Shown: positions 13,832 to 42,408 of the stretch, piece after piece | Layout: each line of letters starts with the position of its first letter | How positions within the stretch are numbered: the first letter of the stretch is position 1 | NCBI GenBank assembly: GCA_049325335.1 | Contig: JBMOMC010000038.1 | Coordinates: forward strand, 1-64,000 | DNA from: Nitrospirota bacterium | Lineage (GTDB): Bacteria > Nitrospirota > Nitrospiria > 2-01-FULL-66-17 | Length of the DNA stretch: 64,000 nt | Direction of reading: 5' to 3' | Made by a program: the position numbers and the translations under genes | The notes under the pieces: generated by a model | What the model was told of the DNA's origin: nothing | Database searches by the model: none | The model's input: only the letters and a program-made list of their open reading frames with translations

Positions 13832-14821
13832 ATGACCACACCGCTGACTGAACACGACGCGTCCGTGCACGCCGACTCGCCCCCAATCGAAGCGGAACCC
13901 ATCCGGCCGTCCGGTCTCGCGCAGCGCGTGGCGTGGGCGTTGCTGCGGGGCGTCCAATGTGGCGTCACGATGATCCCCCTGCGCGCGGCGTTGTGGATCG
14001 CGCGTCGGTTGGGCGACATCGCGTATTACGCGGTCTACCCGCGGACCGCGATTGCGTTGACGCAGATCGCGGACGCCATGCCGGATCTGTCGCGGTCGCG
14101 ACAACGGGCGATCATTCGCGAGATGTACCGGCAGTTCGCGCAAGGCGTGGTGGAGTTCCTCCGACTGCCGCACACGGTGGCGACCGGCCGGCTCGATCAA
14201 TTGGTCGCGGTGGACGGGGAAGACATGGTGCGCAAGGCGTATGCGCAAGGCAAGGGCCTGCTCATTCTGACCGCACACTACGGCAATTTCGAATTGCTGT
14301 CCACGTTTTTTGCGGCCCATGGGTACCAGGTCAACCTGGTCACGCGCCGTCTGAAGAACGGCGCTCTCGATCGGTTCTGGGCCGAGCAACGCCGTCGGCT
14401 CAAGATTCGCGCGATCTTCAAAGAGCAGTCGCTCAAGGAAGTCATCGCCCGGTTGCGGCGCAACGAGGCCATGGGCTATGTCCTGGATCAGAACATGGGA
14501 CTTGGCCAGGGCGTGTTCGTGGATTTCTTCGGCCGCCCCGCATGTACGCTCGGCGTGGTGGCGGTGCTGGCCAAACGGTTCGACAGCCCCGTGATCCCGG
14601 TGTTCATCGCGAGAGATCGACACGACCCCACGCGCCACCGCATCGTGTTCGAGCCGCCCGTGCCGTTCGAGAGCCGAGCCGGGGACAAATCGGACGCGGA
14701 TATCGTGGACAACACCCAGCGCTACACCGCGATCATCGAACGCCGCGTGCGTGACCGGCCGGACCACTGGATCTGGATCCATAAACGCTGGAAGACGAGG
14801 CCGCCGCAAAAAACGGGATAG
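13832..14821 (+). CDS. lpxL: lipid A lauroyl/myristoyl acyltransferase (HtrB/LpxL family)
   Basis: LTAHYGNFE, VLDQ, FVDFFG, PDHWIWIHKRWK. Confidence 0.92.
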   Translation: MTTPLTEHDASVHADSPPIEAEPIRPSGLAQRVAWALLRGVQCGVTMIPLRAALWIARRLGDIAYYAVYPRTAIALTQIADAMPDLSRSRQRAIIREMYRQFAQGVVEFLRLPHTVATGRLDQLVAVDGEDMVRKAYAQGKGLLILTAHYGNFELLSTFFAAHGYQVNLVTRRLKNGALDRFWAEQRRRLKIRAIFKEQSLKEVIARLRRNEAMGYVLDQNMGLGQGVFVDFFGRPACTLGVVAVLAKRFDSPVIPVFIARDRHDPTRHRIVFEPPVPFESRAGDKSDADIVDNTQRYTAIIERRVRDRPDHWIWIHKRWKTRPPQKTG

Positions 14822-18781: not shown

Positions 18782-20488
18782 ATGAGCGATCGACGTCCCA
18801 TTCCCCCCGAATCCCGATCTCCGCGGTCTTCCGCGTCCGACGAGTCCCTGTTGGGACTGATCGACCGGTGTCTTGCGTCGTTGCCGGAGAACGATCCGAA
18901 ACAGAAGTGGCTGTACCGCATCCGTCACTTGGTGCTCCAGGACGAGCGCGCGCGGCGCGACGCCGAGACCGAGTCCCAGAAACTCAAAGGTGTGGTCGAG
19001 AAACTCACGGCGCCGGCCAACCGAATCGGCATCGTGGTCGGCGTGCCTGGAGCCGATGTTGTCCGCGTGGTGGTTGGCGGCGCGGAATACTGGGCGGGAG
19101 TTGATCCCCGACTCGCATGCGGCGACATCAAGATCGGGGTGCAGGTCCTGGTCAACGAAGCGTTTGCGGTCATCAAGGTGCTGGGGTACGAGTCCGGCGG
19201 TCCCGCGCTCCGAGTGGTGGACGCGCTCGCGGACGGCCGCATCCGCATCGGGCAGGAGGCGGGCGGGCAGTCGTCGTTCGTGATCCGAAGCGCGGACCTC
19301 GTCGGGGTAGAGATTCACGCCGGGGACGAGGTGCGCGTGGATTCGAGCCATCGCGTGGCCATCGAGCGCCTGGAGACCAAGGGCAGCCGCGACCGCGTGT
19401 TGGACGAGACGCCGGACGTGACGTGGGAGCAGATCGGCGGGCAACGCGAAGCCATTGCCGCGATCCGAAAATCCATCGAAGCGCCGCTCCTGCACGCGGA
19501 CACGTTCGCGCGGTTTCAGTTCTCGCCGCCCAAGGGATTCCTGCTGTTCGGCCCTCCGGGCTGCGGCAAAACCATGATCGGTAAGGCCACGGCTGCGAGC
19601 CTGGCTGCGTCATTGGCCGCCGGCGCGCAAGGCGAGCAAGGCGAGAATGAGAAGGTACGCGGCGCGTTCCTGCACGTGAAAGGTCCCGAGATTCTCAACA
19701 TGTGGCTGGGCGAGTCCGAGCGCCTGGTTCGCGACCTGTTCGCGCAGGCGCGCGCGCGGCGCAAGGCCGGCCTGTTGCCCGTGATCTTTATCGACGAAGC
19801 CGAGTCTATTCTGGGCACGCGGCGATCCGTGCGTGCGCTGAACATCGCCAACACATTGGTTCCCATGTTTTGCGCGGAGATGGACGGGGTCTCGTCGCTG
19901 CGCGACGTGGTGATCATCCTGGCGTCCAACCGGCCCGATTTGATCGACCCCGCGATTCTGCGTCCGGGCCGCATCGATCGCAAGATCAAGGTGACGCGGC
20001 CGGGGCGTGAGGATGCCGCCGAAATTTTCAAGCTCCATCTTGGAACCGTGCCGGTTGATCCCACTCTCGTGAAGGAACATGGCGACGAAGCAACGGCCCG
20101 CACCGCACTCGCAACCGTGGCGACCGACCAGGTGTTTGGGCGCAGCGCAGCGAATCGGGTGCTCGCAGTCCGCCTGCGCAGCGGGCTACGCGAGACCTTA
20201 TATCGCGGCGACGTAGTCAGCGGCGCCATTCTCGCCGCGATCGTCCAGCGCGCCAAGGAACGTGCGATCGAACGCGCCGTGGGCGGGGATCAGACGGCAG
20301 GAGTTGGCGTCGAGGATTTGACCGCAGCGATCGACGCGGAATTTTCTCAGGGCGAGATTTTACCTCCCGACGACACCGCGGATGAGTGGTTGAAATTACT
20401 GGACCATGACCCACAACACGTGGTGGGCGTATCTTCCTTCCGTGCCGGGCGGGAAGGTGCTGAACGCCCCGTGCACGTTATCGTGTAA
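18782..20488 (+). CDS. arc: proteasome-associated AAA ATPase ARC/Mpa
   Basis: Coiled coil plus OB-fold N-terminus; PDVTWEQIGG, Walker A GPPGCGKT, HVKGPEILN, Walker B IFIDEAE, SNRPDLIDPAILRPGRIDRKI. Confidence 0.95.
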   Translation: MSDRRPIPPESRSPRSSASDESLLGLIDRCLASLPENDPKQKWLYRIRHLVLQDERARRDAETESQKLKGVVEKLTAPANRIGIVVGVPGADVVRVVVGGAEYWAGVDPRLACGDIKIGVQVLVNEAFAVIKVLGYESGGPALRVVDALADGRIRIGQEAGGQSSFVIRSADLVGVEIHAGDEVRVDSSHRVAIERLETKGSRDRVLDETPDVTWEQIGGQREAIAAIRKSIEAPLLHADTFARFQFSPPKGFLLFGPPGCGKTMIGKATAASLAASLAAGAQGEQGENEKVRGAFLHVKGPEILNMWLGESERLVRDLFAQARARRKAGLLPVIFIDEAESILGTRRSVRALNIANTLVPMFCAEMDGVSSLRDVVIILASNRPDLIDPAILRPGRIDRKIKVTRPGREDAAEIFKLHLGTVPVDPTLVKEHGDEATARTALATVATDQVFGRSAANRVLAVRLRSGLRETLYRGDVVSGAILAAIVQRAKERAIERAVGGDQTAGVGVEDLTAAIDAEFSQGEILPPDDTADEWLKLLDHDPQHVVGVSSFRAGREGAERPVHVIV

Positions 20489-20495
20489 GAGCCTG

Positions 20496-22061
20496 ATGTC
20501 TTCGTCCTCCAATTCCGACTCTCCCGCCGTTGGCCTGATGGGTATCGAGACCGAGTACGGCGTCACGCGGGACGGGGTGGGGGAGGTGGACCACGTCGTG
20601 GAGTCCATGGAACTGGTGCGGGCCTATTTGGACCGTCCGTTTCGGCGGCAGTGGAATTACCGGGGCGAGAATCCGCACCGCGACGCGCGCGGGTTCAGCG
20701 TGGACCGGTTGGAGCAGGACGCGGAGGAAGACGAGTTCGTGGCGCGCGAGGCGTCGCGCAAGTTTTCGTTCGCGGACATGAAGAGCGACCTGGTTCTGGC
20801 GAACGGCGCGCGGTTTTACAACGACCACACGCATCCCGAGTACTCCACGCCGGAGTGCCGGTCGCTTCGCGATCTGGTGGCGCACGACCGGGCCGGGGAG
20901 TCGATCGTGTGGGAGGCGGTGCGACGCCGCAACCAACGGCTCGAAGCCGCGGGCAAACTCGGCGACGTGTCGGTCTACAAGAACAATACGGATTTTCACG
21001 GCCACAGCTACGGATGCCACGACAACTATCTGATGCCAAGGAGCGTGCCGTTCGAGCGGATCGCGGCCGGGCTGATTCCGTTTTTGATCTCCCGCCAAGT
21101 CTTCGCTGGCGCGGGCAAGGTGGGCGTGGAGTCGGGGAGCAGGCATACGCCCCAGGGCTACCAGCTCTCGCAGCGCGCCGATTTTATGGAGACCGAGTTG
21201 AGCGTGAACACCATGCACAACCGGCCCATCGTGAACACGCGCGACGAACCCCACGCCGACCCGTCGCGATTCCGGCGATTGCACTTGATCCTGGGCGACG
21301 CGAACATGTGTGAGTACGCCACGGCGCTGAAGGTGGGAACCACGCGCGCGGTATTGGAATTGATCGCGCGCCATGCGGCGCCTGACGTGGCAGTCGCAAA
21401 ACCGGTATTCGCGGCCAGGGCCATTTCGCTGGATCCCGAGTTGAAGGCGACGGTCGGGTTGCGTGACGGGCGGCTGATGAGTGGCCTGGAACTCCAACAG
21501 GCGTACCTTGATGCGGCACGACGACATCTCGCGGGCCTTGATCAAGAAACCGATTGGCTACTCGGCGAGTGGGAATCCACCTTGGTTGCGTTGAGCCGCG
21601 ATCGGTCGTCCTTGCGAGGGCGAATTGATTGGATCACTAAGCGGTGGCTGCTGGACACATTCGCCGAAGACGCCCATGTCGCGTGGGATGATCCGTGGCT
21701 GACCAGCCTTGATCTGGCATACCATCATCTGGACCCGGAACGTGGGTTGTTTCGGGGATTGGAAGCGGAAGGTGCGACGGCGAGCGTCGCAACTCTCGAA
21801 TCGGTTGATCGCGCGGTCCGCGAAGCGCCGAGCGACACTCGTGCCGCGATTCGCGGGTTGTGCGTGACGCGGTTCGGGAATGAGGTGGAATCCGTGCAGT
21901 GGGAACGCGTCACCGCGACGGACGGCGCGGTGTTGGATCTGAATGGTCTCGTGGACCCCGACGACGTGGCGCAGATATACGCCGTACTCCGCGAAGCACC
22001 AAGCCTCGCGGATGCAATCCGCGCGGTTCAGCAACCCTTGGCACAACGAGGTCACGCATGA
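20496..22061 (+). CDS. dop: Dop/PafA2 deamidase-deconjugase
   Basis: MGIETEYG, Dop-specific WNYRGENPHRDARGF loop, NGARFYNDHTHPEYSTPEC, YKNNTD..G.SYGCHDNY, NTRDEPHAD. Confidence 0.93.
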   Translation: MSSSSNSDSPAVGLMGIETEYGVTRDGVGEVDHVVESMELVRAYLDRPFRRQWNYRGENPHRDARGFSVDRLEQDAEEDEFVAREASRKFSFADMKSDLVLANGARFYNDHTHPEYSTPECRSLRDLVAHDRAGESIVWEAVRRRNQRLEAAGKLGDVSVYKNNTDFHGHSYGCHDNYLMPRSVPFERIAAGLIPFLISRQVFAGAGKVGVESGSRHTPQGYQLSQRADFMETELSVNTMHNRPIVNTRDEPHADPSRFRRLHLILGDANMCEYATALKVGTTRAVLELIARHAAPDVAVAKPVFAARAISLDPELKATVGLRDGRLMSGLELQQAYLDAARRHLAGLDQETDWLLGEWESTLVALSRDRSSLRGRIDWITKRWLLDTFAEDAHVAWDDPWLTSLDLAYHHLDPERGLFRGLEAEGATASVATLESVDRAVREAPSDTRAAIRGLCVTRFGNEVESVQWERVTATDGAVLDLNGLVDPDDVAQIYAVLREAPSLADAIRAVQQPLAQRGHA

Positions 22062-22240
22062 TGAACATGGATACGGAACGTCGCGAACGGCCGCTGGACC
22101 CGACGCCCAAACCCCGGGAAGAGGAACAGGGGCCAAAGCGTCCTGACGTGGGCTCGCCGGAGCGGGACAATCTAATGAAGCGGATGAGACAAGTCGATCC
22201 CAAACAGGCGGAGCGTTATCGGCAGCGAACCGGCGAGTAG
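22058..22240 (+). CDS. ubact: ubiquitin-like protein UBact (Pup analogue), 60 aa
   Basis: Charged, disordered small protein; LMKRMRQVDPKQAERYRQRTGE C-terminus; located between dop and prcB; GAGG RBS. Confidence 0.95.
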   Translation: MMNMDTERRERPLDPTPKPREEEQGPKRPDVGSPERDNLMKRMRQVDPKQAERYRQRTGE

Positions 22241-22247
22241 TGCTGTT

Positions 22248-22319
22248 TCGTAGGGGCGCACCGCGTGCGCCCGATGTTTGTCCGGACCGAAGGCGGGCGC
22301 ACGCGGTGCGCCCCTACGA
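22248..22319. repeat. GTAG-type REPIN (inverted REP doublet)
   Basis: Perfect 26-bp arms (22248-22273/22294-22319) with a 20-bp spacer; each arm is GTAG plus an internal palindrome GGGCGCAC..GTGCGCCC. Confidence 0.85.
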
Positions 22320-22331
22320 GAAAGGGAATCG

Positions 22332-23108
22332 GTGCGAGGGGATTTTCTCGAAGTGTTGAAGTCGAATGGCTATGCGTGGACGCCGCAAGTGACGGGCGGG
22401 GTGGTCAATCCCGCGGCGATTACGCACGGGACCACGGTGATCGCGATGAAGTATCGCGACGGGGTCATTGTCGCGGGGGATCGGCGGGCGACCGCGGGTA
22501 ATGTGGTGATGCACGATCGGACCGAGAAGGTGCTGGATCTGGATCGGCACAGCGTGCTGGCGATCGCGGGGGTGCCGGCCACCGCGTTTGAGATGGCGCG
22601 GGTGCTCGATCACTCGTTCAAGTACTATCGCCGCAGCCAGCTCCAGGATTTGAGTCTGGAAGGCAAGTTGCGCGCGTTGTCCAAGCTTCTACGTGAAAAC
22701 GTGCCCATGGCGGTGCAGGGCATCGGCGCGGTGGCGCCGATCTTTGCCGGGTACGACCTCGACACCAACGCGGCCAAGATCTTTTTCTACGACATCTTGG
22801 GCGCGGAGTTCGAAGGCGTGGAGTACGCGGTGTCGGGGTCCGGGTCGCCAACGATCCGCGGCATCGTGTATTACCTGCACCGCTGGGGACCGCAACGCGT
22901 GGCTGACCTCGTTGCGAATGACGCGACCGTGTTGGCGCTCCGACTGTTGGATAGCGCCGCGGAGTTCGACTCCGCCACTGGCGGGGTCAAGGGCACGGAC
23001 GGCTTGTATCCCGTGGTGAAATTGATCACGCGAGACGGGATCACGCCGGTACCGGTGGACCATCTCCGTCGGTTGTACGCCGATCAGGTGGAGGCGCGAG
23101 ATGTTTGA
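22332..23108 (+). CDS. prcB: 20S proteasome beta subunit
   Basis: Propeptide ending THG/TT (catalytic Thr1), GDRRATAG, SGSGS, AAEFDSATGG. Confidence 0.95.
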   Translation: MRGDFLEVLKSNGYAWTPQVTGGVVNPAAITHGTTVIAMKYRDGVIVAGDRRATAGNVVMHDRTEKVLDLDRHSVLAIAGVPATAFEMARVLDHSFKYYRRSQLQDLSLEGKLRALSKLLRENVPMAVQGIGAVAPIFAGYDLDTNAAKIFFYDILGAEFEGVEYAVSGSGSPTIRGIVYYLHRWGPQRVADLVANDATVLALRLLDSAAEFDSATGGVKGTDGLYPVVKLITRDGITPVPVDHLRRLYADQVEARDV

Positions 23109-23880
23109 GGAGCCGTACCGCTGGACCGAGGCGGTCGGCAACCGCCGCGCGTACGTTGACGCGCAGTTCGCGCAAGGCAGCCCGGTGGCGGCGTTGTCGT
23201 ACCGCGACGGCGTGGTACTGGCCACGTTTCAACGTGGGATTCCCAAACTCTACGAGGTCTACGACCGCATTGCCTTGGGCGGTCTCGGTCATCCCGCGGA
23301 TCTGGAATCCTTGCGCGCGGCCGCGTTGGACATGGCGCACGTGGAGGGGTTCAATCGCTCGCCGTCGGACGTGACCGCCATGCGCCTGGTCAAGTACGGC
23401 CTCGCGCCCATCGCCAAACGCGCGTACGAGGAATTGTTTCGGGCTCCGCTGCTCGCGCGGGTGCTGTTGGCGCAGGTCGGGGCCACGCGTGCGCAGGATG
23501 TCTTGGTGACATTGGATTATGACGGCGGGTTCGAAACCGTATCGGGGCGCGCGGCCGTGGCGCCCTCGTCCGAAGCGTCCCTGGCCATGCTCGCCCGGTT
23601 GGACGCGGCCGGGCCGTGGGACGACGCGCCGCTCGCGCAGGCGTTGCCCGCCGCGCTGCGAGCCTGGGCCGTGGGGGACCTCGCGCAGTCCTCGGACGTT
23701 GCCGCGCCCGCTCCGGACGATGCGCGGCTGACCGAACACCTCAAGGCGTGCTGCGCGGACCGGCGGATCGAAGTCGCGGTGCTGGATCGCGCGCTGCCGG
23801 GAAGTTCCAAGTACCGGGCGCTCTCGCCGGACGAAGTCTCGCAGACACTCGTTCCTTGGCTGGGCGAGGCGGCGCGTTAG
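23101..23880 (+). CDS. prcA: 20S proteasome alpha subunit
   Basis: KLYEVYDRIA..G.G..ADLE.LR, IEVAVLDR; overlaps prcB. Confidence 0.92.
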   Translation: MFEEPYRWTEAVGNRRAYVDAQFAQGSPVAALSYRDGVVLATFQRGIPKLYEVYDRIALGGLGHPADLESLRAAALDMAHVEGFNRSPSDVTAMRLVKYGLAPIAKRAYEELFRAPLLARVLLAQVGATRAQDVLVTLDYDGGFETVSGRAAVAPSSEASLAMLARLDAAGPWDDAPLAQALPAALRAWAVGDLAQSSDVAAPAPDDARLTEHLKACCADRRIEVAVLDRALPGSSKYRALSPDEVSQTLVPWLGEAAR

Positions 23881-23892
23881 CGCCGGCGTCCC

Positions 23893-25302
23893 GTGCTCGA
23901 CCGCATCGTCGGCGTTGAAACCGAGTACGGCGTTCTGGCGCACGCCGACAACCGGTTTCGCGCGCCCGAACGCATCGCCCACCGCGTGCGCGACGTGGTG
24001 TTTCACGAACAGCGGCGCGGGGTGATCGACCTTCACCACCGCGATTACGACGAACCCGTGGGCAACGGCGGGTTCCTGCTCAACGCGGGCCGGCTGTACG
24101 TGGACATGGGGCACATCGAGTACGCGAGCCCGGAGTGCGCCACGCTCGCGGACGCGGTGGCGTACGAACGTGCGGGCGATCTGATCGTGCAGCGCGCGTT
24201 GGAGGCCGCGGGTTTGGCCGACGAGGCGTCGATGATCAAGAACAACATCGACCACGAAACCGACGCCACGTTCGGGTCTCACGAAAACTACCTGGTGCGC
24301 CGGTCATTCCCGTTCACGCGGGAAGGGCTCAATCGCCTGGTGCCGTTTTTGGTCACGCGCCAGATTTTCGCCGGGGCTGGACGGGTCGGGGCCGCGCGCT
24401 CCGCATCGGGGCTGGTGCGAATCGGCGAAGACGCGGAGCGGCCCGACGTGGATTTTCAGATCGCGCAGCGGTCCGACCATATCGTCAATGAGTTTTTCCA
24501 GTGGGTGCAGGGCAATCGGGCGATTGTGAACACGCGCGACGAGCCGCTCGCGGACCCCGAGAAATATCGACGCATTCATTTGCTGCTGGGCGATTCGAAC
24601 CTGTGCGAGGTCGCCATGGCGCTCAAGATTGGCACGACCTCGCTGGTATTGCGGTTGATCGAGGATCACGCGTGTCCGGACGACCTGGCGTTGACCGACG
24701 CGGTGGACGCGCTGCACGCGATCTCGCGCGATCCCGAGCGGCGATGGCTGGTGGAGTTGGAGGACGGACGCACCATGTCCGCGATCGACGTGCAGGAGCG
24801 GTACGCGGAGGCTGCGCGGGCGCGGTATTTCGGGCGGGACGAGGAAATGGATTGGGTGCTCGATGAGTGGGAGCGCGTGCTGGTTGATCTGCGCGGCGAC
24901 TACGACGCGCTGGTTGGGCGGGTGGATTGGGCGTCCAAACTCTGGCTCTTAGAACACTTCCGGCGCGCGGAAGGACTCCACTGGCACGACCGGTGGATCA
25001 AGAGTCTGGATCTGGCGTACCACAACCTTGAGCCGTCGCGCGGACTGTATTTTGCGTTGGCGGACGAGGGGCGGGTGCGTCGGTACGTCACGGACGAAGC
25101 GGCAGACCTGGCCGCGGACAACCCCCCGCGGAACACGCGCGCGTTCGGCCGGGGCGAAGCCATTCGCCGGATGATGGCCGGCGACGCGCGCTACGTCATC
25201 ACCTGGTCGGGCCTGATGGTCGAGGGCAAGCCGCCGTTGCGAATGCCGGATCCGTTCAAGACGTATACGGACGCGGTCGCCGCCCAACTCGGCGCGGCCT
25301 GA
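23893..25302 (+). CDS. pafA: Pup/UBact--protein ligase PafA
   Basis: RIVGVETEYG, FLLNAGRLYVDMGHIEYASPEC, KNN.D, HENYL, NTRDEPLAD, DLAYH, C-terminal DPF. Confidence 0.93.
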   Translation: MLDRIVGVETEYGVLAHADNRFRAPERIAHRVRDVVFHEQRRGVIDLHHRDYDEPVGNGGFLLNAGRLYVDMGHIEYASPECATLADAVAYERAGDLIVQRALEAAGLADEASMIKNNIDHETDATFGSHENYLVRRSFPFTREGLNRLVPFLVTRQIFAGAGRVGAARSASGLVRIGEDAERPDVDFQIAQRSDHIVNEFFQWVQGNRAIVNTRDEPLADPEKYRRIHLLLGDSNLCEVAMALKIGTTSLVLRLIEDHACPDDLALTDAVDALHAISRDPERRWLVELEDGRTMSAIDVQERYAEAARARYFGRDEEMDWVLDEWERVLVDLRGDYDALVGRVDWASKLWLLEHFRRAEGLHWHDRWIKSLDLAYHNLEPSRGLYFALADEGRVRRYVTDEAADLAADNPPRNTRAFGRGEAIRRMMAGDARYVITWSGLMVEGKPPLRMPDPFKTYTDAVAAQLGAA

Positions 25303-32174: not shown

Positions 32175-35100
32175 GTGGAAGGGTCTCGGAATTCCATGTT
32201 CATGGCTGGTTCAGTCGGCCCGCGCGTCCGCGGCCATACAGACAGTGGTATATCGTGGCGTGCCCGTCTACTGCCGGGCCTGGCGTTCGCGTGTCTGGTC
32301 GGACTTGGTTTCGGCATTGCAGCGCCTCCATCCGTCGCGGCTGGAACGGATGTCTCGTCTGACGTCGGGAACCGACTAGACGCGGAGCTCCAGACCCTTC
32401 GTGGCACCGCGGATGCGATCCTGAGCGATCTCAGGGCGGGAGGGACCGGCTCATCCGGCTTGGACGCGTTGCGCGGGAGCGCGGACCGGGTGCGCGCGTT
32501 GGACACGCTCGTGCGCGGTCGGTTCGGTCGCGTCGAGGCCACGCTTCGCGAACATTCCGCGTCGTCAGCGCTCTTGGGGCGCCGCGATGCGGCCGCGGCT
32601 GCGTACGAGGCCGCGGCCGATGCGGTCCTGGCCTCGCTCTCCGCGTTGGACGCCGCGTCCCGTGGGGACCGCGCTGTGCTGACGGGTGTTTTGGAGCGGT
32701 TGATCAACGCATTGGCCGACGTGACGCCGTCCCAGGAAGACCGACGTCCGCTTGGGATCGATCTGCCGTATCATCCGCTCGACCTGCCCACGGTCTCGCC
32801 GCGCAGGACCCCGACTGTAACGCCGGCATATCTTGCCGCATCGTTAGTCGCCCCGGCGCCCGAAGACCTGGCGGGGACGACGTCCGATGCCGTTGCGGCG
32901 CAGGCCGAGGCCTCCGGATACGATCCCATCGCCTTGTTTGAGTTCGTCCAGCAGTCCATCGACACCGAGTTTTACGACGGCGTGCTCAAGGGCGCGGACG
33001 GCGCGCTGCGCGAGCGGCGCGCCAATGACGCGGATCAAGCCGTGCTGCTGGTCGCGCTGCTGCGCGCGGCCGGGACGCCCGCGCGGTTCGTGCACGGCGT
33101 CATCGAAATTTCGGCCGAGCAGGCCGCGGCGTGGACCTCCGTGGGGTCTGCGCAACGCGCCGCCGACCTCTTTGGGCGCGCCGGGATTCCGTACGAGCCG
33201 GTTCGGCGCGGCGGGGGCATCGGCGCGTTCAGGATCGAGCACACGTGGGTGGAAGCCTACGTGTCCTACGGCAACTACCGCGGCGCGCCGTTGGACACCG
33301 GGGGCAAGGCGTGGGTTGCGCTCGACCCGTCGTTCAAAGCCTATCGGTACGAAACCGGCCTCGACGTCCTTGGGGAGATGGGATTCAGCGCCGATGCCTT
33401 GGCCACGGAGTACTTAGCGCAGCCGCAAACGATGGATCCAGTGGCCGTGTTACGCGCGCGGATCACCGAGTATCTGACCGCGAATCGGCCGGGCGCGTCG
33501 ATCGACCAGGCCATGGGCCGCCGGGTGTTGGACGAGCCGCGCGCGGGATTGCTGCCGAACACGTTGCCGTACGCCACCGTGGCCGTGACCGACGAATTTG
33601 CGGCCCTGCCTACCGAGCGGACACATCGCGTGCGTGTGCGCGCGGCCGCGGATAACGGGGACGCGTTCGACGTGACGTTGCCCGCGTCGGAATTCGTCGG
33701 GCATCGCATCACGCTCTCGTATGTGCCCGCCACGGTCGAGGACCATGTCGCGGTCAACGCGTTCTTGCGGCTGGACAACACGCCCGCGTACTTGGTGGCG
33801 CTGCGCCCAGTGCTCAAGGTGGACGGGGTGGTGCGCGCGGCCGGAGAGCGGTCGGTCCGGATGGGCGCATACCATGACCTGACCATTGAACTGCACGGGA
33901 CGCGCGGGTCCGCGGAAACCACGGACTCCTTGCTCGCGGGGGGGTACTACGCGCTGGGATTCGGCTCCCACGCGGCCGCGTACACGCCGTCGTCGGAGCC
34001 GTCCCCCCGGGACACCGAGCCGCCGGCCGGCGACCTGTTGTTCCAAATGGCCTCCGAGTACCTTGACGCCTGGAATCGGGCCGAGGAGGATTTGGCCGCG
34101 ATGACGCGCGTGGCCGTGGTGCGGCCGCTGCCGTCGGTTGTGATGGTGGGCAGCGTGTACGGCCGGACAGTCCTGTTCGGTCGTCCCCAGACCGTTGATT
34201 GGCGCGGGGTGTTTGTGGACGCCAATTTTCGCGCGAGCGACGCGATCCCCGCGGGCAACGACGCGACACGCGCGGGGGCGTTCTTACGATTGTCCGGTCT
34301 GGCCGGCTCCGTGCTTGAGCGCTCGGTGTTGGCCCAGAAACTCGGGGCCGAGGCCGTCTCCACGGTGTCACTGATTCAGTCCGCGCGCGCAAACGGGGAG
34401 CCAATCGAAGAGATCGACGCGTCGAACGCGTCGGTCATCGCGTCGCTGAGTACGTCGGACAACGTGAAGGCCGAGGTGACCGACGCGGTGAATCGCGGCT
34501 GGCGCGTGACGATTCCGCGGTCGGATCTGATCCGCGATCGATTCCACGGCATCGGCTACATCGTGCGCGATCCCGCGTCAGGCGGCGCCGGGTATTTCAT
34601 TTCCGGCTCATTGGCGGGCGGGATCACCATCAACGACGCGCGAAATTGGGTGGAGCAGGCGTACGCCGATGCGCTCCATTTTGCGTACACGCCGCCGCCC
34701 AATCCGGATCCCACCGCCGCGCTATACATCTTTAAGGTCGCCATCAGCAACAACCAGAACGGAATCGCGGGCGAGCCCGCGGAGAGCCCGTTGTTTGTGT
34801 GGGTGCTCGACCGGGACGGGCGGCCGGTGATGGGCGCGGACGTGACGTTCCAGATCGTCTCCGGGGGCGGCCAATTCGACGCGGCGGGCGCGCAGAGCGT
34901 GACCGCGACGACGGACTATCTCGGCATCGCGGCCGCAACGCCGATCTGGGGCCGTCACACCGCCGACGCGCCGTTCTACCTGATGGCGAATGCAGGCGAT
35001 CCCCAGCCCACGCAAGTGGGACACAATCTGGTCACCGCCCGGGTGCAGGGTTCGGGGGGGCACATTCCGCTTTCTGCGCCGTTCCAGGCGTTTGCCTACC

Positions 35101-38100
35101 CCGGCGAACCGCACCATATTCGCAAGGTGTTGGGGGAAGGGAATCAATCGCTCGCTGGCACGGCCGCTGGTACGTTGCGGGCGCGAGTGGAAGATCAATA
35201 CGACAACACGATCTCCAATATCGACGTCCTGTTCCGGGTCGTACCGGCCGAACCCCGGGTGGGCGCCGCTCTGCCCTCGAGCGCGCAGAACATGGTCGTC
35301 TACTCCCAAGATCCGCCCTGTCCGAACGAGAATCCCGTGATCGGCGACTGCGGGGGCGTGGCGTCCCTCGCGGTGACCACGTCCGTATTCGGGGCCTCGG
35401 TCGAGACGATCCTGGGCGATACCATTGCGACCAGGTATGGCGTGCAAGCATCGGTGCCGTCCGCGCCCGGGGTGGCCGCCGAGACGTTCGCGCTATTTGC
35501 GGTCGGCCGACGGGATTACGACGCCCCCGGGTACGCGCCGCCCACGCTGATGATGTCGCAACTGTCTCTGGTCAATGACCGCGGCGAGTTGCTCAACAGC
35601 GCCAAGGTCGGGACCTCGTTCGCGCGACCGTTGGGCGTGGCGTTGTACCTGATCGAGGATCGCTTCCTCATGGTCCCGACCGGGGCGCCGTGCGGACCCA
35701 ATGAAACGGACCCGCCGTGTTATGAAGTGCGGTCGTTGGCGACCAGCCGCATCCGTCCCGTCGATATTCAGCGCACGGGGCCGGATATCACATACCCCAC
35801 GGTGACGCCGGACGCAGTTTCGGTTCCGAAACAAAGTGAGACCGCCAATATCGCTTTCAACGCAATTGCCGGTGGTGGCAGTGTGGTCCCACCGGTGCAG
35901 AATGCGCCGGGCCACGGCCTGGGCCAGGGCCGGTACGAGGCCGTGCTGACGGTCGGATCGAATCCCGTGCTCAACCGGGTCGAGGTGGACGCCACCGCAA
36001 CCATTTGGTTGCCGGACATCAACCTGCACGCATCCAGCGCCGCCGGAACCGTGACTCCAAGACTCGTCACCATGCGGCCGGGCCAAGACTTCCTGGGATT
36101 GGTCAACCACGATCCCTTGCAACCCAGATTCGGCGGCAATCCGTTGACCGTCACGCACGAAGTCTTTGGGGTCCGCGCGACCATCCCGACGCCTCCCGTG
36201 GCGTTGATCGGTCCCAGTGGGCTGGTGGCCTTCGACGCGGACGTGAACTACTTGATCGAGCCGGCGGGCTACGCGGCGCAGACCGCGGACGTGGATCTTT
36301 TCGAGGTGAAGACCGGCGCGCCGGATGAGTGGCTCGGATACGTGGTGGGCGACCATGCGTCCGGCGCGGGCGCCGGCACGATTCTCCAGGGCATGTTCTT
36401 CAATCCGGCCAAGCGGTATCGCGCCAAGGTGGTGTTGAACCGAGGCAGCGAGGTTGAGCTCGCCAGCGGCCTGGAATCGCTGGACGCGTACTTGCGCGAG
36501 CCCCTGCGGTTGGATTTCGGGTCCAAGAAGCACGCGGAGGAGCAACACCGACAGAAGAAGGAACGGGATCTGGCCGCGATCTTCCAGGCCGAGAAAGCCG
36601 CGTTGGTCGGCGTGATCCAGCAGGGGCTGATCGAAGGGGCGGCGTGCGGGATTCCCACCGGCGCGCCGATCGCGATTATCGAGCAAGGCAGCGGCGCCTG
36701 TTTTTGGAAGGACAGGTTCGCGACCGACCCGGTGGGCACGTGCGCGGCGTTTCAGCCCGAAGTGAGCGATCACGACTACGAAGTGTTCGTGCCCTCCGCG
36801 TACATGCCGGGCACCGACACCTCGGGCGCGGCGTGTCTGGTCAATCATCTCAACAAGGCCGGGCAAGATTCGGAACTCGCGGACGTGACGTTTTTCCCGA
36901 TGTCGAAGGAGGATTTCGAGCGCGGGCGGCTCAACGTCATGCCGCCGGTCGTGCCGGGCGGATCGGATCCCACCGGCGACCTGGGCCTGGGCCGACAGTC
37001 GCTCCTGCTCAAATGGCTGCTGGAAGGCGAGTACGTCACCGGCATCGCCGGGTTGTCCGTTCCCGCGGTCGGCGGGCAGGTACGGCCGTTGGACGCGATT
37101 CTCGAAGACCTGCGAACCACGCCGTACATGGACGGCGAGCCCACCGGCATCCCGCGGTTGGAAGGCCACGAGTGGGCGGCGCTGCAGGAGTTCAACCTGT
37201 TCAAGTCCGGCGCGCACCTGCGCCTCAAGGGCCAAGCCGTTGATCAACGCAGCGGCCTCTTCGAGCGGCTCCAGAAGGAAGTGCACGACGTGGCCAAGGC
37301 CGGGATCAGGGCCGTGATGGCGCGGCTCGCGACCGACGAGCGCGCGAATCGGCGGCTGTTCATCGCGCGTCCGGAGTACAACTCGGGTGCGGGCTGCCTG
37401 ACCGGGACCGAGGACCCCTCGCGGCCGCGGCCGCCCGCGAGTCTGTTCCCCAAGCGGTGCGACTCGTTCGAGGAGCACGTGGCCTCCACAGCGGTCAAGA
37501 GTCTGCGTGACGGATATGGACTCTTCACGCCCGAACAGACAGCTATGATCTACAACCTGTACCGCGTGAAAGCCGACGCGACGTGCGCCGCCCCCGGCTG
37601 CACCACCCGAATCATGGATGAAGCGGAAGCCAACCGGTTCGTGGCGAGCGCGTACGACTTAATCCGGCAGGTGAGCGCCGACACGGAAGCGATCTACCTC
37701 TCAACGGTCGGCAACGACTCGGCCAACGCGGTCCAGCGCGCGGCCAATTTGTCCACCGCCCGGACCAAGGCCTTGGAGGCGCAAGCCACGGTGAAGCGCA
37801 CGCCCACGACCCGGGTGCTCAACGCCAGCGTGTTGTCGTTCGAGAACGTCGAGGTCGCGCAGGACAGCGACGCTACCAACGGGGTGACGCCCCCCCGGCA
37901 CGTCGTCCCGGTCGTCGATTTCGGCGAGCGATTCCTCGACGTGGCCCGCACCGTGAGCGGCAGCCCGATTCTCGACCCCAACGGCGACGAACAACCCTTG
38001 ATGAAGACCGCGCTCCCGGGCGATCAGACCCGCTACGTGCGAGCCTTGCTCGATCCGAATCATACGATTCGTCAGTGTGAGCCCACGGCCAACTTCACGG

Positions 38101-41100
38101 GTTTTTACGCGCATCCGCTCACGTTCAGCGATCCCGGGACCATTCCGTCGCTGCCGGATCAGCCGCCGTTGCCGGGATCGTTTCCCGCGCCGCCGCAGGA
38201 GTGTCTGGATCATCCGGCCCCGCGCCTGCGCGTGGACAAGACCGTTAATGGGCAACCGGATATCAAAGTGGCGCCCGGGACCGAGGTGTCGATCGTCAAC
38301 AAGGTGACCAACACCGGGGCGGTCCCCCTCACCGGGGTGACCCTCACGGATCTGTTGACGAACAGGACCTACGGGCCGATCTCCTTGGCGCCCGGATCGA
38401 GCCGCGTGTTTCCCGCCGCGCGGTTTACGCCCACGCAATTCGGAAAAGAATTAATCGGTCCCACCGAGGCCGTCGGCTTCATCGCGGCCGGGGGCGTCGT
38501 GCAAGCATGGGACAGCGTGGTGATCGACGTGATGGCGCCGCCGTGCGACAACGCCATCGTGCTATTGAGTCCGGACCCGAATCCGTACAACCCGACGAAC
38601 GGCGATCCGGTGTCCGAGGTCATGCAGGGGGGCTCGTTGTACCGGCATTACCGCGTGCTGGACGCGCGCACCGGGGCGCCCATTGCCACTGCCACGGTCG
38701 GGTTGCTCGTGAACGGTGCGGCCCAGACCGCGCAGACGGACGCGGACGGGTACATGATCCACACGCTCGTTCCGGATGAGACCGATCCCTTGGGACTGAA
38801 GATCGAGGCCGGGGCCATCGGCGCGCCAGGCACGACGGTGCCGGTGGTATTGGTCAGCGTCAACGGCAACCCCAGCACGTGCGGACAGCGCTTTGACGCG
38901 ACGGTGAATCCCCGCGAATTTACCCGCGCGATCAAGGCGGGATCGAGCATGAAGCTGGCGGCTTCGTTCGCCGCGATGACGGTCAACGGCAAAGAAGGCT
39001 TCGGCATGGATCTGAGCCTCGACGGCACGCCGGCCGGGGATACCAAGCTGACCTTCGGTCGCACGAACAACGTGGAACTGGGTGTGGGGGTCAAGGCCAC
39101 CGCGGCCAAATTCCGTGTGAAGTTGATCGGCACGGCGTCGCTGGCCAACGTGGGAGTCAGCGCGGGCGCTTCGGGATTTCTCATGCTGAGCGACAAATAC
39201 GAGTTTCCGTTCCCATTGAATCTGGACAGCACGTTGGCGCTCGGCCACCTGTTCCTCGGGACATTGAGTCTGGCGTCCAACAGCATGAATCCAGCATTGG
39301 GCGGACCAGTCACGGCACGGTTGCTGGACGAGGTCTACAACCGGTTCTTGGGCGTGGACGCGTATCGCGTGTCGTACGGTCCGTCGATGGGGCTCAAGGT
39401 CACGGCGGGAGGGAGCCTCACCGGGCCGGTCGTGAATCTGCAAAGGACCGGCATTCCCTTGCTCCAAGACGTCGGGCTGCGCATCGGGGTGGAGGGATCG
39501 GTGGACGCGGCGGTGACCGCGGCGTTTACCATGAAGCCCCCTAAAAATGAGTTCGTGACCAGCGTGGAGTACAACGCGGCCGCGAACATCTCGGGCGGGT
39601 TGGACGTCGGGAAACTCAGGTCGCTTCCTAATGCCCCCAAGCCGTCCGCGATCGCCAAGACCGTGGATGACGTGAAGTTTCGTTTCAACGGCGGCATTTC
39701 CGGCAGCATCAAGTTCGCGACGACCATCGACACGGCCGCGAGTCCGCTGGAACTCAAAAAAGTGGAGGTGTCGATCTCCGGCCAGAAAGGCTTCGGGTAC
39801 AAACTGCCGTTCGGTCAGCAAGCCGGGGCTGACGTGTCGGCGCTCGGGTACACCGACTCTACCGAGTTCGCGGTGACCGACCCGGCCAAGATCGATGAAG
39901 CGGTCACGACCATCACCACCATTCAACTGCTCGCCCCGCTGTACGCGAGCCCGGTCACCACGGAACTGATCGGCCCCTCGTTGTTGGGCGAGCGGATCGC
40001 GGAACTGGTTCGTCTGTTCGACCAGTATGAAGACAAGCGAGAGCGAGGACAAGGCGTGGAACTCCCCGTGGGCTTGGAAGGCGCGCTGTTCGGAACCGGG
40101 CTGGAGGGCGAAGTGGCGCTCAAGTTGGATCGGAGCGTTGAGTACGCGACGGAAAAGGGCGCGGTGCGGGACGGACAGAAGTTCAAACTCGAAACCTACG
40201 ACAAGAATGATCCGCTCGTGCCTCCATCAGGCATGCCGGTGGTCGAGTCGATTGTGGATCAAATGATCTCGGCCATCAGCCATGAAATCGTCTCCGCGTT
40301 CACGCGCGTGGTGAGCGCGATCGTGCCCAATCCCACGAATCCGTTCTCGATGATTCCCGTACGATTTTCGCCGTCGGGCGCGGATCTCACGATCAACAAT
40401 GCGGCCGAGCCGCAAGCCTTTAACGTGGACTTATTGGCCTACAAGTATCAGCCGATCTCCGGGCCGGTGGGGCCCATTGTTCAGGATCCGTCGGACGCCG
40501 CCGGGCCCGGCGACAAGCCGCACTTCGGGGTGGGCGGATTTTTCCAGTACGGCCCGTATGGGAAAACGCTGGCCGCGGCCGCGACATTGACCATTTATTA
40601 CGAGCCGTACGAGGTGGCGAGCCTGGATGAGTCGTCGCTGGCCATCTATAAGTGGAACACCGCGGCGTTGGACTGGGAGTATGTGGGCGGGACGGTTACG
40701 CCCATCGGGACGGGACTCTTCGGCAGCGTGACCGCGCAAATCAATGCGCTGGGCCTGTACACCCTGGCGCCGGCCATGCCCAGCGGGAAATTCGGGTACA
40801 CGGCGACGGCCACGGTCTCGTCCGGCCAGCCCGCGACCACGACGGTCCATTACACCAGTCAGTCGCTCCGGATGAATCACGGCGGCGCGGTGCCCGACGG
40901 CACACTGTTCACCGTGCTCACGTCGTGGCCGGATGCCAGCGCCGTGGTGCCGTTCGGGACCGTGACTACGCCGGATGAGGACCTGTTGACCGACGGTGTG
41001 CAGGTGCGGTCTCAGAGCGGGGTGATCCGGTTCACCGCGGAGTATCCGGGCGCGTTTGGGGCGGTGCGCGTGTTGGCGTATCCGACCGAAGGCACGGCGT

Positions 41101-41129
41101 TCGGTGAACAGATGATGGTGTACCCATGA
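32175..41129 (+). CDS. ~2980-aa secreted protein with transglutaminase-like domain and multiple Ig-like domains
   Basis: Signal-like segment; TGase-fold motifs ANDADQA..LVALLRAAG.PARFV.G, HTWVE, W..LDPS; Big_1-like (V.D.DGRPV.GA.VTF) and DUF11-like (VTNTG.VPLTGVTLTD) domains. Confidence 0.85.
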   Translation: MEGSRNSMFMAGSVGPRVRGHTDSGISWRARLLPGLAFACLVGLGFGIAAPPSVAAGTDVSSDVGNRLDAELQTLRGTADAILSDLRAGGTGSSGLDALRGSADRVRALDTLVRGRFGRVEATLREHSASSALLGRRDAAAAAYEAAADAVLASLSALDAASRGDRAVLTGVLERLINALADVTPSQEDRRPLGIDLPYHPLDLPTVSPRRTPTVTPAYLAASLVAPAPEDLAGTTSDAVAAQAEASGYDPIALFEFVQQSIDTEFYDGVLKGADGALRERRANDADQAVLLVALLRAAGTPARFVHGVIEISAEQAAAWTSVGSAQRAADLFGRAGIPYEPVRRGGGIGAFRIEHTWVEAYVSYGNYRGAPLDTGGKAWVALDPSFKAYRYETGLDVLGEMGFSADALATEYLAQPQTMDPVAVLRARITEYLTANRPGASIDQAMGRRVLDEPRAGLLPNTLPYATVAVTDEFAALPTERTHRVRVRAAADNGDAFDVTLPASEFVGHRITLSYVPATVEDHVAVNAFLRLDNTPAYLVALRPVLKVDGVVRAAGERSVRMGAYHDLTIELHGTRGSAETTDSLLAGGYYALGFGSHAAAYTPSSEPSPRDTEPPAGDLLFQMASEYLDAWNRAEEDLAAMTRVAVVRPLPSVVMVGSVYGRTVLFGRPQTVDWRGVFVDANFRASDAIPAGNDATRAGAFLRLSGLAGSVLERSVLAQKLGAEAVSTVSLIQSARANGEPIEEIDASNASVIASLSTSDNVKAEVTDAVNRGWRVTIPRSDLIRDRFHGIGYIVRDPASGGAGYFISGSLAGGITINDARNWVEQAYADALHFAYTPPPNPDPTAALYIFKVAISNNQNGIAGEPAESPLFVWVLDRDGRPVMGADVTFQIVSGGGQFDAAGAQSVTATTDYLGIAAATPIWGRHTADAPFYLMANAGDPQPTQVGHNLVTARVQGSGGHIPLSAPFQAFAYPGEPHHIRKVLGEGNQSLAGTAAGTLRARVEDQYDNTISNIDVLFRVVPAEPRVGAALPSSAQNMVVYSQDPPCPNENPVIGDCGGVASLAVTTSVFGASVETILGDTIATRYGVQASVPSAPGVAAETFALFAVGRRDYDAPGYAPPTLMMSQLSLVNDRGELLNSAKVGTSFARPLGVALYLIEDRFLMVPTGAPCGPNETDPPCYEVRSLATSRIRPVDIQRTGPDITYPTVTPDAVSVPKQSETANIAFNAIAGGGSVVPPVQNAPGHGLGQGRYEAVLTVGSNPVLNRVEVDATATIWLPDINLHASSAAGTVTPRLVTMRPGQDFLGLVNHDPLQPRFGGNPLTVTHEVFGVRATIPTPPVALIGPSGLVAFDADVNYLIEPAGYAAQTADVDLFEVKTGAPDEWLGYVVGDHASGAGAGTILQGMFFNPAKRYRAKVVLNRGSEVELASGLESLDAYLREPLRLDFGSKKHAEEQHRQKKERDLAAIFQAEKAALVGVIQQGLIEGAACGIPTGAPIAIIEQGSGACFWKDRFATDPVGTCAAFQPEVSDHDYEVFVPSAYMPGTDTSGAACLVNHLNKAGQDSELADVTFFPMSKEDFERGRLNVMPPVVPGGSDPTGDLGLGRQSLLLKWLLEGEYVTGIAGLSVPAVGGQVRPLDAILEDLRTTPYMDGEPTGIPRLEGHEWAALQEFNLFKSGAHLRLKGQAVDQRSGLFERLQKEVHDVAKAGIRAVMARLATDERANRRLFIARPEYNSGAGCLTGTEDPSRPRPPASLFPKRCDSFEEHVASTAVKSLRDGYGLFTPEQTAMIYNLYRVKADATCAAPGCTTRIMDEAEANRFVASAYDLIRQVSADTEAIYLSTVGNDSANAVQRAANLSTARTKALEAQATVKRTPTTRVLNASVLSFENVEVAQDSDATNGVTPPRHVVPVVDFGERFLDVARTVSGSPILDPNGDEQPLMKTALPGDQTRYVRALLDPNHTIRQCEPTANFTGFYAHPLTFSDPGTIPSLPDQPPLPGSFPAPPQECLDHPAPRLRVDKTVNGQPDIKVAPGTEVSIVNKVTNTGAVPLTGVTLTDLLTNRTYGPISLAPGSSRVFPAARFTPTQFGKELIGPTEAVGFIAAGGVVQAWDSVVIDVMAPPCDNAIVLLSPDPNPYNPTNGDPVSEVMQGGSLYRHYRVLDARTGAPIATATVGLLVNGAAQTAQTDADGYMIHTLVPDETDPLGLKIEAGAIGAPGTTVPVVLVSVNGNPSTCGQRFDATVNPREFTRAIKAGSSMKLAASFAAMTVNGKEGFGMDLSLDGTPAGDTKLTFGRTNNVELGVGVKATAAKFRVKLIGTASLANVGVSAGASGFLMLSDKYEFPFPLNLDSTLALGHLFLGTLSLASNSMNPALGGPVTARLLDEVYNRFLGVDAYRVSYGPSMGLKVTAGGSLTGPVVNLQRTGIPLLQDVGLRIGVEGSVDAAVTAAFTMKPPKNEFVTSVEYNAAANISGGLDVGKLRSLPNAPKPSAIAKTVDDVKFRFNGGISGSIKFATTIDTAASPLELKKVEVSISGQKGFGYKLPFGQQAGADVSALGYTDSTEFAVTDPAKIDEAVTTITTIQLLAPLYASPVTTELIGPSLLGERIAELVRLFDQYEDKRERGQGVELPVGLEGALFGTGLEGEVALKLDRSVEYATEKGAVRDGQKFKLETYDKNDPLVPPSGMPVVESIVDQMISAISHEIVSAFTRVVSAIVPNPTNPFSMIPVRFSPSGADLTINNAAEPQAFNVDLLAYKYQPISGPVGPIVQDPSDAAGPGDKPHFGVGGFFQYGPYGKTLAAAATLTIYYEPYEVASLDESSLAIYKWNTAALDWEYVGGTVTPIGTGLFGSVTAQINALGLYTLAPAMPSGKFGYTATATVSSGQPATTTVHYTSQSLRMNHGGAVPDGTLFTVLTSWPDASAVVPFGTVTTPDEDLLTDGVQVRSQSGVIRFTAEYPGAFGAVRVLAYPTEGTAFGEQMMVYP

Positions 41130-41995: not shown

Positions 41996-42408
41996 TGCGA
42001 GCGATTCTCGTTGGGGCGCTGCTGACCGGGGTGTGGCACTTGCCCGCCGCGGTTAACGCGGCCGAGTTCGGCGCGGACCAGCCGGTCACGTCGCTAACCC
42101 TGATCGCCAGCGACGATGTGCGGGCCGTGGTGCGGTTCGGCCACGGGCCGCAACTCACGATCGCGGTGGGCGATCGCGTGGGCCAAACGCGCGCCGAGGT
42201 GCGTGAAATCGCGCCGGGCCGGGTGGTGCTCGATGACGCGGCCACGGAAACGAGTGGACGGATCAATCGAGCCGTCGTGGTGTTGAGCGAAGGCACACCG
42301 GGTGGCACGCGGTATACGTCCGATCCCGGTACGGTGCCGCCGAAGGCCGTCAAGCCGGTGGTGACCGCGCCGCCGGGAACGGATCGAGGGAACACGAGCG
42401 GACGGTGA
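41995..42408 (+). CDS. small secreted protein with PilP/GspC-HR-like beta domain
   Basis: Signal peptide; AVVRFGHG..LTIAVGDRVGQTRAEVREIAPGRVVL; start and stop overlap the neighbouring genes (TGATG). Confidence 0.7.
   Translation: MRAILVGALLTGVWHLPAAVNAAEFGADQPVTSLTLIASDDVRAVVRFGHGPQLTIAVGDRVGQTRAEVREIAPGRVVLDDAATETSGRINRAVVVLSEGTPGGTRYTSDPGTVPPKAVKPVVTAPPGTDRGNTSGR

Follow-up and report, generated by a model that had tools for sequence, protein, structure and literature searches.

A stretch of 64,000 nucleotides from a Nitrospirota genome (G000:C38:1-64000, referred to here as the window) contains a UBact-proteasome operon of six genes, arc-dop-ubact-prcB-prcA-"pafA". The genome measures 3.25 Mb and is 99% complete. 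The six open reading frames (ORFs) all lie on the + strand, span positions 18782–25302 and are separated by 7, -4, 37, -8 and 12 nt in gene order, the third gap becoming 91 nt if prcB starts at 22332. The first-pass annotation, made from the sequence alone, had read the region as six co-oriented, close-set genes in the order of the Pup-proteasome operon, and the strands and short gaps bear this out. The arc gene (18782–20488) encodes an ARC/Mpa-type AAA+ proteasomal ATPase of the UBact type with AAA, OB_N and OB_C domains, dop (20496–22061) a deamidase/deconjugase homolog, and ubact (22058–22240) the tag. They are followed by prcB (22332–23108) for the 20S beta subunit, prcA (23101–23880) for a divergent 20S alpha subunit, and a last gene (23893–25302) for a PafA/Dop-family enzyme, the predicted UBact ligase. 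Hidden Markov model searches returned the expected families, PF03136 for dop and the last gene and PF00227 for prcB. Against the actinobacterial equivalog cut-offs of NCBIfam all five large genes fall below the threshold, ARC for instance reaching 418.7 bits with TIGR03689 (cut-off 504.75), and the tag alone passes its own. The operon is a complete and intact UBact set.

The tag is a protein of 60 residues ending in RYRQRTGE, not in the GG[Q/E] of Pup, as had been noted at first sight. Its identity as UBact was checked with the two available models and holds: it scores 79.2 bits with NF033388 (cut-off 35) and 72.9 bits with PF20513 (cut-off 27.8). Sequence comparison of the tag with the Pup of the same genome gives no alignment. 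Among 109 distinct intact UBact tags, 77 end in TGE and 32 in TGQ, and two further tags are frameshifted; a TGQ-ending tag is present in one genome of the same genus (L102). The C-terminus of Pup is likewise GGQ in the source genome and GGE in two genomes of the same genus. The terminal residue thus flips freely between Glu and Gln. That a terminal Glu dispenses with deamidation follows from Pup biochemistry (PMC7947786, in part). The earlier proposal that Dop would act mainly as a deconjugase therefore stands for the source strain only and does not extend to the family, in which 32 of the 109 tags end in TGQ.

Related loci were gathered via the last gene, and the best 80 of 188 confirmed stretches, representing 79 loci, were compared. 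All six genes are present in 57 of these 79 loci, which argues that the arrangement is not due to chance, and most of the remaining 22 sit on short or cut contigs. The last gene has its closest named relatives in Nitrospirota, with identities of 96%, 83% and 74%. UBact-type loci also occur in Verrucomicrobiota, and the names Latescibacterota/Gemmatimonadota and Armatimonadota appear on related enzyme clusters. The host is a diderm (Gram-negative) bacterium, since LpxA (349 bits, cut-off 231) and LpxC (331 bits, above its cut-off) are encoded in the genome. The first-pass annotation had drawn the same conclusion from lpxL, which is weak evidence when taken alone: the lpxL-like gene at 13832–14821 passes PF03279 and none of 17 NCBIfam cut-offs, and one of these models is that of an actinobacterial acyltransferase. 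UBact-proteasome loci of Gram-negative bacteria were reportedly described on bioinformatic grounds by Lehmann et al. in 2017.

A second proteasome operon, found by tblastn of the genome, is located on contig C43 (about 190334–196709; L001:6335-12710) and has the complete order arc-dop-pup-prcB-prcA-pafA. Its ARC ends in TGHYL, and its Pup, of 65 residues, ends in GGQ and scores 75.9 bits with PF05639. The UBact and C43 operons share 38% identity in ARC, 36% in the beta subunit and 29% (partial) in the alpha subunit. The C43 operon lies next to an M23 peptidase and to genes for thiamine synthesis.

In 201 Nitrospirota genomes UBact is found in 50 and Pup in 77; both are present in 49 of the 50 UBact genomes, and at least 27 genomes have Pup without UBact. 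Nitrospirota keep the UBact set beside Pup. Of five complete or near-complete genomes, four hold four PF03136 genes each and the fifth, which is without UBact, holds two. The situation in Verrucomicrobiota is different, as all four genomes reached via UBact-type loci contain only two PF03136 genes, and so do seven of the eight positives among 251 Verrucomicrobiota genomes, one genome being included in both counts. Since these bacteria hold only the UBact pair, the set is able to function on its own. The UBact-type operon is found in two pieces in some of the verrucomicrobial genomes, arc-dop lying apart from a lone ligase gene (L127-L130, L135, L008). Among Pup loci, 9 of the 20 fetched have a solitary pup gene, as judged over about 6 kb on either side (families f2 and f3; L085-L092, L100, L121-L126); all six of the corresponding arc-dop-prcB-prcA-pafA operons that were fetched have no internal tag gene, and three of their ARCs end in GHYF.

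The C-terminus of the UBact ARC, PVHVIV, does not contain the GQYL or the hydrophobic-tyrosine-X (HbYX) motif, and the penultimate Tyr is missing. The N-terminal tag-binding region is also unlike that of Pup-type ARC. The tails were compared in closed ORFs of 520–660 residues with duplicates removed, 140 of the UBact type and 17 of the Pup type. No UBact-type ARC has an aromatic penultimate residue; it is Ile or Val in 136 proteins, Ala or Ser in three, and one tail is frameshifted. The conserved Ile/Val spans phyla. All 17 Pup-type ARCs end in G-x-Y-L/F. Mycobacterial Mpa docks on the 20S via GQYL according to passages of PMC8755798 and PMC12288473.

The pocket of the alpha ring that receives the Mpa tail was compared between 122 alpha subunits of the UBact type and 19 of the Pup type, with positions numbered via a Rhodococcus alignment. 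The carboxylate-binding K52 is kept in all 122 UBact and all 19 Pup subunits, and D144 in 121 of 122 and 19 of 19. Three other positions differ. G23, which presumably faces the Tyr of the ATPase tail, is Gln in 122/122 UBact subunits and Gly in 19/19 Pup subunits. E119 is aliphatic in every UBact subunit and Glu in every Pup subunit, and R26 is Gln in 73 and Arg or Lys in 24 of the 122, as opposed to Arg or Lys in all 19 of the Pup type. The prcA product of the window keeps K52 (its own K49) and D144, while G23, R26 and E119 are replaced by Gln, Gln and Leu, respectively. The mycobacterial structures, as far as covered by parts of PMC9599533 and 10.1101/249060, have the tail Tyr meeting R26 or E119 of the alpha subunit, the carboxylate meeting K52 and the backbone of the tail Gly meeting D144. 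Taken together, the aligned residues are consistent with a pocket remodelled to take an aliphatic tail. The N-terminal gate sequence of the UBact alpha subunit also differs from the Pup type and contains an invariant EPYRW. Among the models, the prcA product matches TIGR03691 alone, and weakly (57 bits, cut-off 139), and it matches the solved actinobacterial alpha subunits with an E-value of 2e-7.

The beta subunit has a propeptide that ends in His-Gly and is followed by Thr1, with Asp17 and Lys33 present; Lys33 is found in all 118 scored UBact homologs. The likely start of prcB is the GTG at 22332, which is preceded by GAAAGGGA; the longest ORF begins with a TTG at 22278, and the homologs are mostly 257–259 residues long. 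The 98-nt spacer after ubact folds at -70.9 kcal/mol. It contains, 3' of the ubact stop, a palindrome (22250–22317, no strand assigned) with a perfect 23-bp inverted repeat. The palindrome begins with GTAGGGGCGCAC; the genome has 36 copies of the 12-mer at its start, often in inverted pairs. A variant is present in one genome of the same genus, and 13 further loci have other hairpins or none. The palindrome is a dispersed element similar to repetitive extragenic palindromes (REP-like) and does not belong to the conserved content of the operon.

The two PF03136 enzymes of the operon differ in the elements that define Dop. The dop product contains the Dop loop with its conserved Trp, the catalytic Asp-His and the alpha-loop Thr equivalent to Acel T217, and scores 454.5 bits with TIGR03688, below the cut-off of 492.3. 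The Dop-loop motif W-x-Y/F-x-x-E is found in 128/128 UBact Dops and in all 19 Pup Dops, and in none of the 128 UBact last-gene proteins. The T217 equivalent, a residue of the alpha-loop that in Dop clamps the tag by binding its terminal residue (PMC8599861, in part), is present in each of the 127 UBact Dops that were scored and is Val or Ile in 126 of 126 scored last-gene proteins. Also missing from the last gene are the Dop His beside the catalytic Asp and the His stacked on the Trp of the Dop loop (DEPL in 126/128). The last gene keeps the ATP motif GxExE, Asp71, His130, Arg215 and His229. Its alpha-loop, HIVNEFFQWVQGNR, is of its own type and does not contain the S-S-x-T-T-[R/S]-S-R of Pup PafA. 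A further motif, H-D-N-Y, is present in 107 of 128 UBact Dops and absent from Pup Dop and both ligase groups, which have H-E-N-Y.

In verrucomicrobial genomes with only this pair of PF03136 enzymes, one of the two must be the ligase, and the last gene is the predicted one because it is the only member of the pair without the Dop loop and the clamp Thr. The last gene is thus inferred to be the UBact ligase by elimination and by its lost hydrolase features. The label pafA, given to it initially, is less certain than the first-pass annotation made it. The PafA (TIGR03686) and Dop models score it nearly equally, at 342.1 and 339.5 bits (PafA cut-off 551.3), and at the 22 Dop/PafA discriminating positions tabulated in the consulted part of PMC7947786 it is, by eye, PafA-like at four, Dop-like at four and neither at 14. 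The predicted model of the protein (mean predicted local distance difference test, pLDDT, 90.5) has template modelling (TM) scores of 0.84–0.85 to both Dop and PafA. Its alpha-loop, checked for a helix, is modelled as a strand and a loop, and in a control model of Pup PafA this part likewise comes out as a strand, with a three-residue turn.

The family trees indicate how such a ligase might have arisen. In an IQ-TREE analysis (site-heterogeneous model LG+C20) of 44 chosen rows, UBact Dop and UBact ligase are separated from Pup Dop and Pup PafA with support 96/100, and with the function loops included a single clade of both ligases is not rejected by the approximately unbiased (AU) test (p 0.185). 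When 330 core columns without the function loops are used, the split by system has support 99 and the joint ligase clade is rejected (AU p 0.00018); removal of a 40-column segment suspected of tag contact leaves the support at 99 and gives an AU p of 0.021. The split persists, with support 98, in 60 rows, of which 26 are added divergent cluster representatives. A FastTree of 166 rows disagrees and groups all Dops (support 90, unstarred). These trees are unrooted, include only three to four actinobacterial or actinobacteria-like rows per enzyme and become weak when the alignment is halved. The Dop loop is homologous between the UBact and Pup systems, and the simplest reading is therefore a Dop-like ancestor with two separate origins of the ligase. 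An origin of the UBact ligase independent of PafA is moderately favored by these data. The grouping could alternatively stem from long branches, from ancient gene conversion or from convergence on a shared tag at other sites of the groove. A single ancient split of Dop and PafA had been inferred from a tree of the best hit per genome, as described in part of PMC7947786.

Further PF03136 lineages without the Dop loop are found at separate places of the tree (P0144, P0172, P0183, P0184, P0215, P0148 and P0204), hinting that the loop may have been lost more than twice. A lone and very divergent PF03136 protein of 768 residues is encoded at L134 (G420:C43:25000-38291), where proteasome genes were not detected nearby.

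The UBact set probably constitutes a self-contained tagging and degradation circuit that would run parallel to the Pup circuit of contig C43. At the expense of ATP, the last gene product would place a phosphate on the terminal Glu of UBact before joining the tag to lysines of the substrate, while Dop would remove the tag and, in lineages with a terminal Gln, deamidate it. The ARC hexamer would bind UBact via its own N-terminal region and unfold the substrate. It is proposed to dock on its own alpha ring by the aliphatic (V/I)(V/I) tail, whose carboxylate would meet the invariant pocket Lys, the UBact alpha pocket being hydrophobic where the Pup-type pocket binds Tyr, and the Thr1 beta subunits would then cleave the substrate. 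Cross-talk between the two proteasomes would be prevented because each has its own tag, tag receptor and docking code. The full picture, that of an independently built second ubiquitin-like system with a Dop-derived ligase, a Tyr-free tail opening a co-evolved 20S and two orthogonal circuits per cell, is put forward tentatively and has somewhat less than an even chance of holding in all its parts.

Several observations weigh against this scheme, and those on docking suggest a variant of it. Aligned with Pup-type ARCs, the UBact proteins end five residues earlier, as though T-G-H-Y-L had been deleted, and their tail may therefore fall short of the pocket. The tail sample is mostly made of Nitrospira kin (78 of the 140 tails end in QII) and was collected with the window proteins as queries, and Arg/Lys26 persists in 24 of the 122 UBact alpha subunits. 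UBact might be conjugated as proposed, with an ARC tail that does not gate the 20S: ARC would only unfold or remodel tagged proteins, or bind the alpha ring by other surfaces, and the 20S would be opened otherwise. The lost GQYL, called essential for 20S opening in mycobacteria in passages of PMC12288473, and the changed alpha gate sequence are in line with this variant. It is nonetheless considered unlikely, as the operon retains prcB and prcA, Thr1 and Lys33 are unaltered, K52 is invariant, the Tyr-contacting positions shift in a consistent direction and the penultimate Ile/Val is kept across phyla.

The ligase assignment has to be weighed in the same manner. The last gene scores higher on the solved Dop than on the solved PafA (275.7 versus 243.6), and a fold search places Dop level with or above PafA. 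The insertion after the catalytic Asp occurs in 18/18 Pup PafA and in 0/128 UBact last genes, and the PafA Thr pair is missing (VQ or IQ in 126/126 scored); the double mutant of these two alpha-loop threonines weakens PafA (PMC7947786, in part). Together with the few PafA-like positions and the grouping with UBact Dop in trees, this could indicate that the last gene is a second hydrolase or another amine-ligation enzyme, with the attachment of UBact left to the Dop-like gene, a heterodimer of the two or the PafA of the Pup system. Such an arrangement is improbable in view of the missing Dop loop, Dop His, T217 clamp and Trp-stacking His and of the verrucomicrobial genomes that are without any further PF03136 gene; moreover, mutations can turn Dop into a ligase in several ways, according to part of PMC7947786. 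It is very improbable that the UBact and Pup operons are paralogs able to stand in for each other, with one merged pool of tags and enzymes and with mixed proteasomes. Both tags end in G[E/Q], verrucomicrobial G[EQ] tags were counted as Pup orthologs in 2008 (PMC2588565, in part) and co-occurrence in Nitrospirota is near-total, but the tags do not align, the ARC N-termini, tails and alpha pockets differ, and each system is found without the other, Pup in the Pup-only Nitrospirota genomes and UBact in the UBact-only Verrucomicrobiota. It also counts against the proposed two-circuit scheme that a literature search, the coverage of which did not extend to Lehmann et al. 2017, turned up no experimental work on a UBact component.

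The UBact operon itself is already catalogued (PF20513, NF033388). In the literature searched nothing was found on a Tyr-free bacterial ATPase tail or on the origin of the UBact ligase, although Lehmann et al. 2017 may mention the tail, and no description was found of the family-wide traits of tail, alpha pocket and ligase; the same paper may note dual systems. By title, no paper centered on UBact with the proteasome was found. UBact is mentioned in one sentence of the consulted part of PMC11354881 and is absent from the passages seen of PMC12288473 and from those of a 2026 PafA preprint, and no mention of Nitrospira or Lehmann was found in PMC8223512; the consulted part of PMC7203096 gave no hit. 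The HbYX motif is treated in PMC4254994, and the rule of docking by a penultimate Tyr is stated for eukaryotic and bacterial proteasome ATPases in part of PMC8755798. Docking without this Tyr, if true, would be an exception to the rule for proteasome ATPases. If the ligase was indeed derived from Dop on a separate occasion, nature would have repeated the engineered conversion of a hydrolase into a ligase, and the view of one ancient split between Dop and PafA would need to be qualified. Two insulated proteasomes in relatives of nitrifiers would form an orthogonal tagging-degradation pair. From standard residue masses, the tryptic remnants are TGE (+287.11 Da) for UBact and GGE (+243.09 Da) for Pup, and because they differ both target sets are readable from one proteome.

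The rest of the window contains two giant co-oriented ORFs. The one at 32175–41129 encodes 2984 residues with a transglutaminase-like domain, and the one at 42405–60608 encodes 6067 residues with CARDB, FlgD, Ig, PKD, fn3 and F5/8 domains; a SurA/PPIC-type isomerase and a 137-residue ORF lie in between. The region looks like a secreted surface-protein locus. At the contig start (226–1224) there is a tyrosine recombinase with an integron-integrase-like N-terminal domain.

The locus shares with the UBact loci of Gram-negative bacteria the tag family, the RYRQRTG[E/Q] end, the six-gene order and a Nitrospirota host. No feature singles out the locus of the window, the tail, the alpha pocket and the ligase subfamily being family-wide traits. 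To judge from its sequences, the UBact system resembles the Pup-proteasome system, yet differs from it by the tag, the docking motif and the ligase signature. With the Pup systems of actinobacteria and Nitrospirota it has in common the gene order, the predicted folds, the ATP-binding and catalytic residues, the Thr1 protease and the terminal G[E/Q] of the tag. Unlike in these systems, the UBact tag cannot be aligned to Pup, the ARC is without G-x-Y-L, the alpha subunit is changed at G23, R26 and E119, the ligase does not contain the alpha-loop and post-Asp insertion of PafA, and the five large genes stay under the equivalog cut-offs. Pupylation of the Corynebacterium type operates without a proteasome, with an ARC that does not have the canonical docking tail. 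The UBact operon, in contrast, holds both 20S genes with intact active sites.

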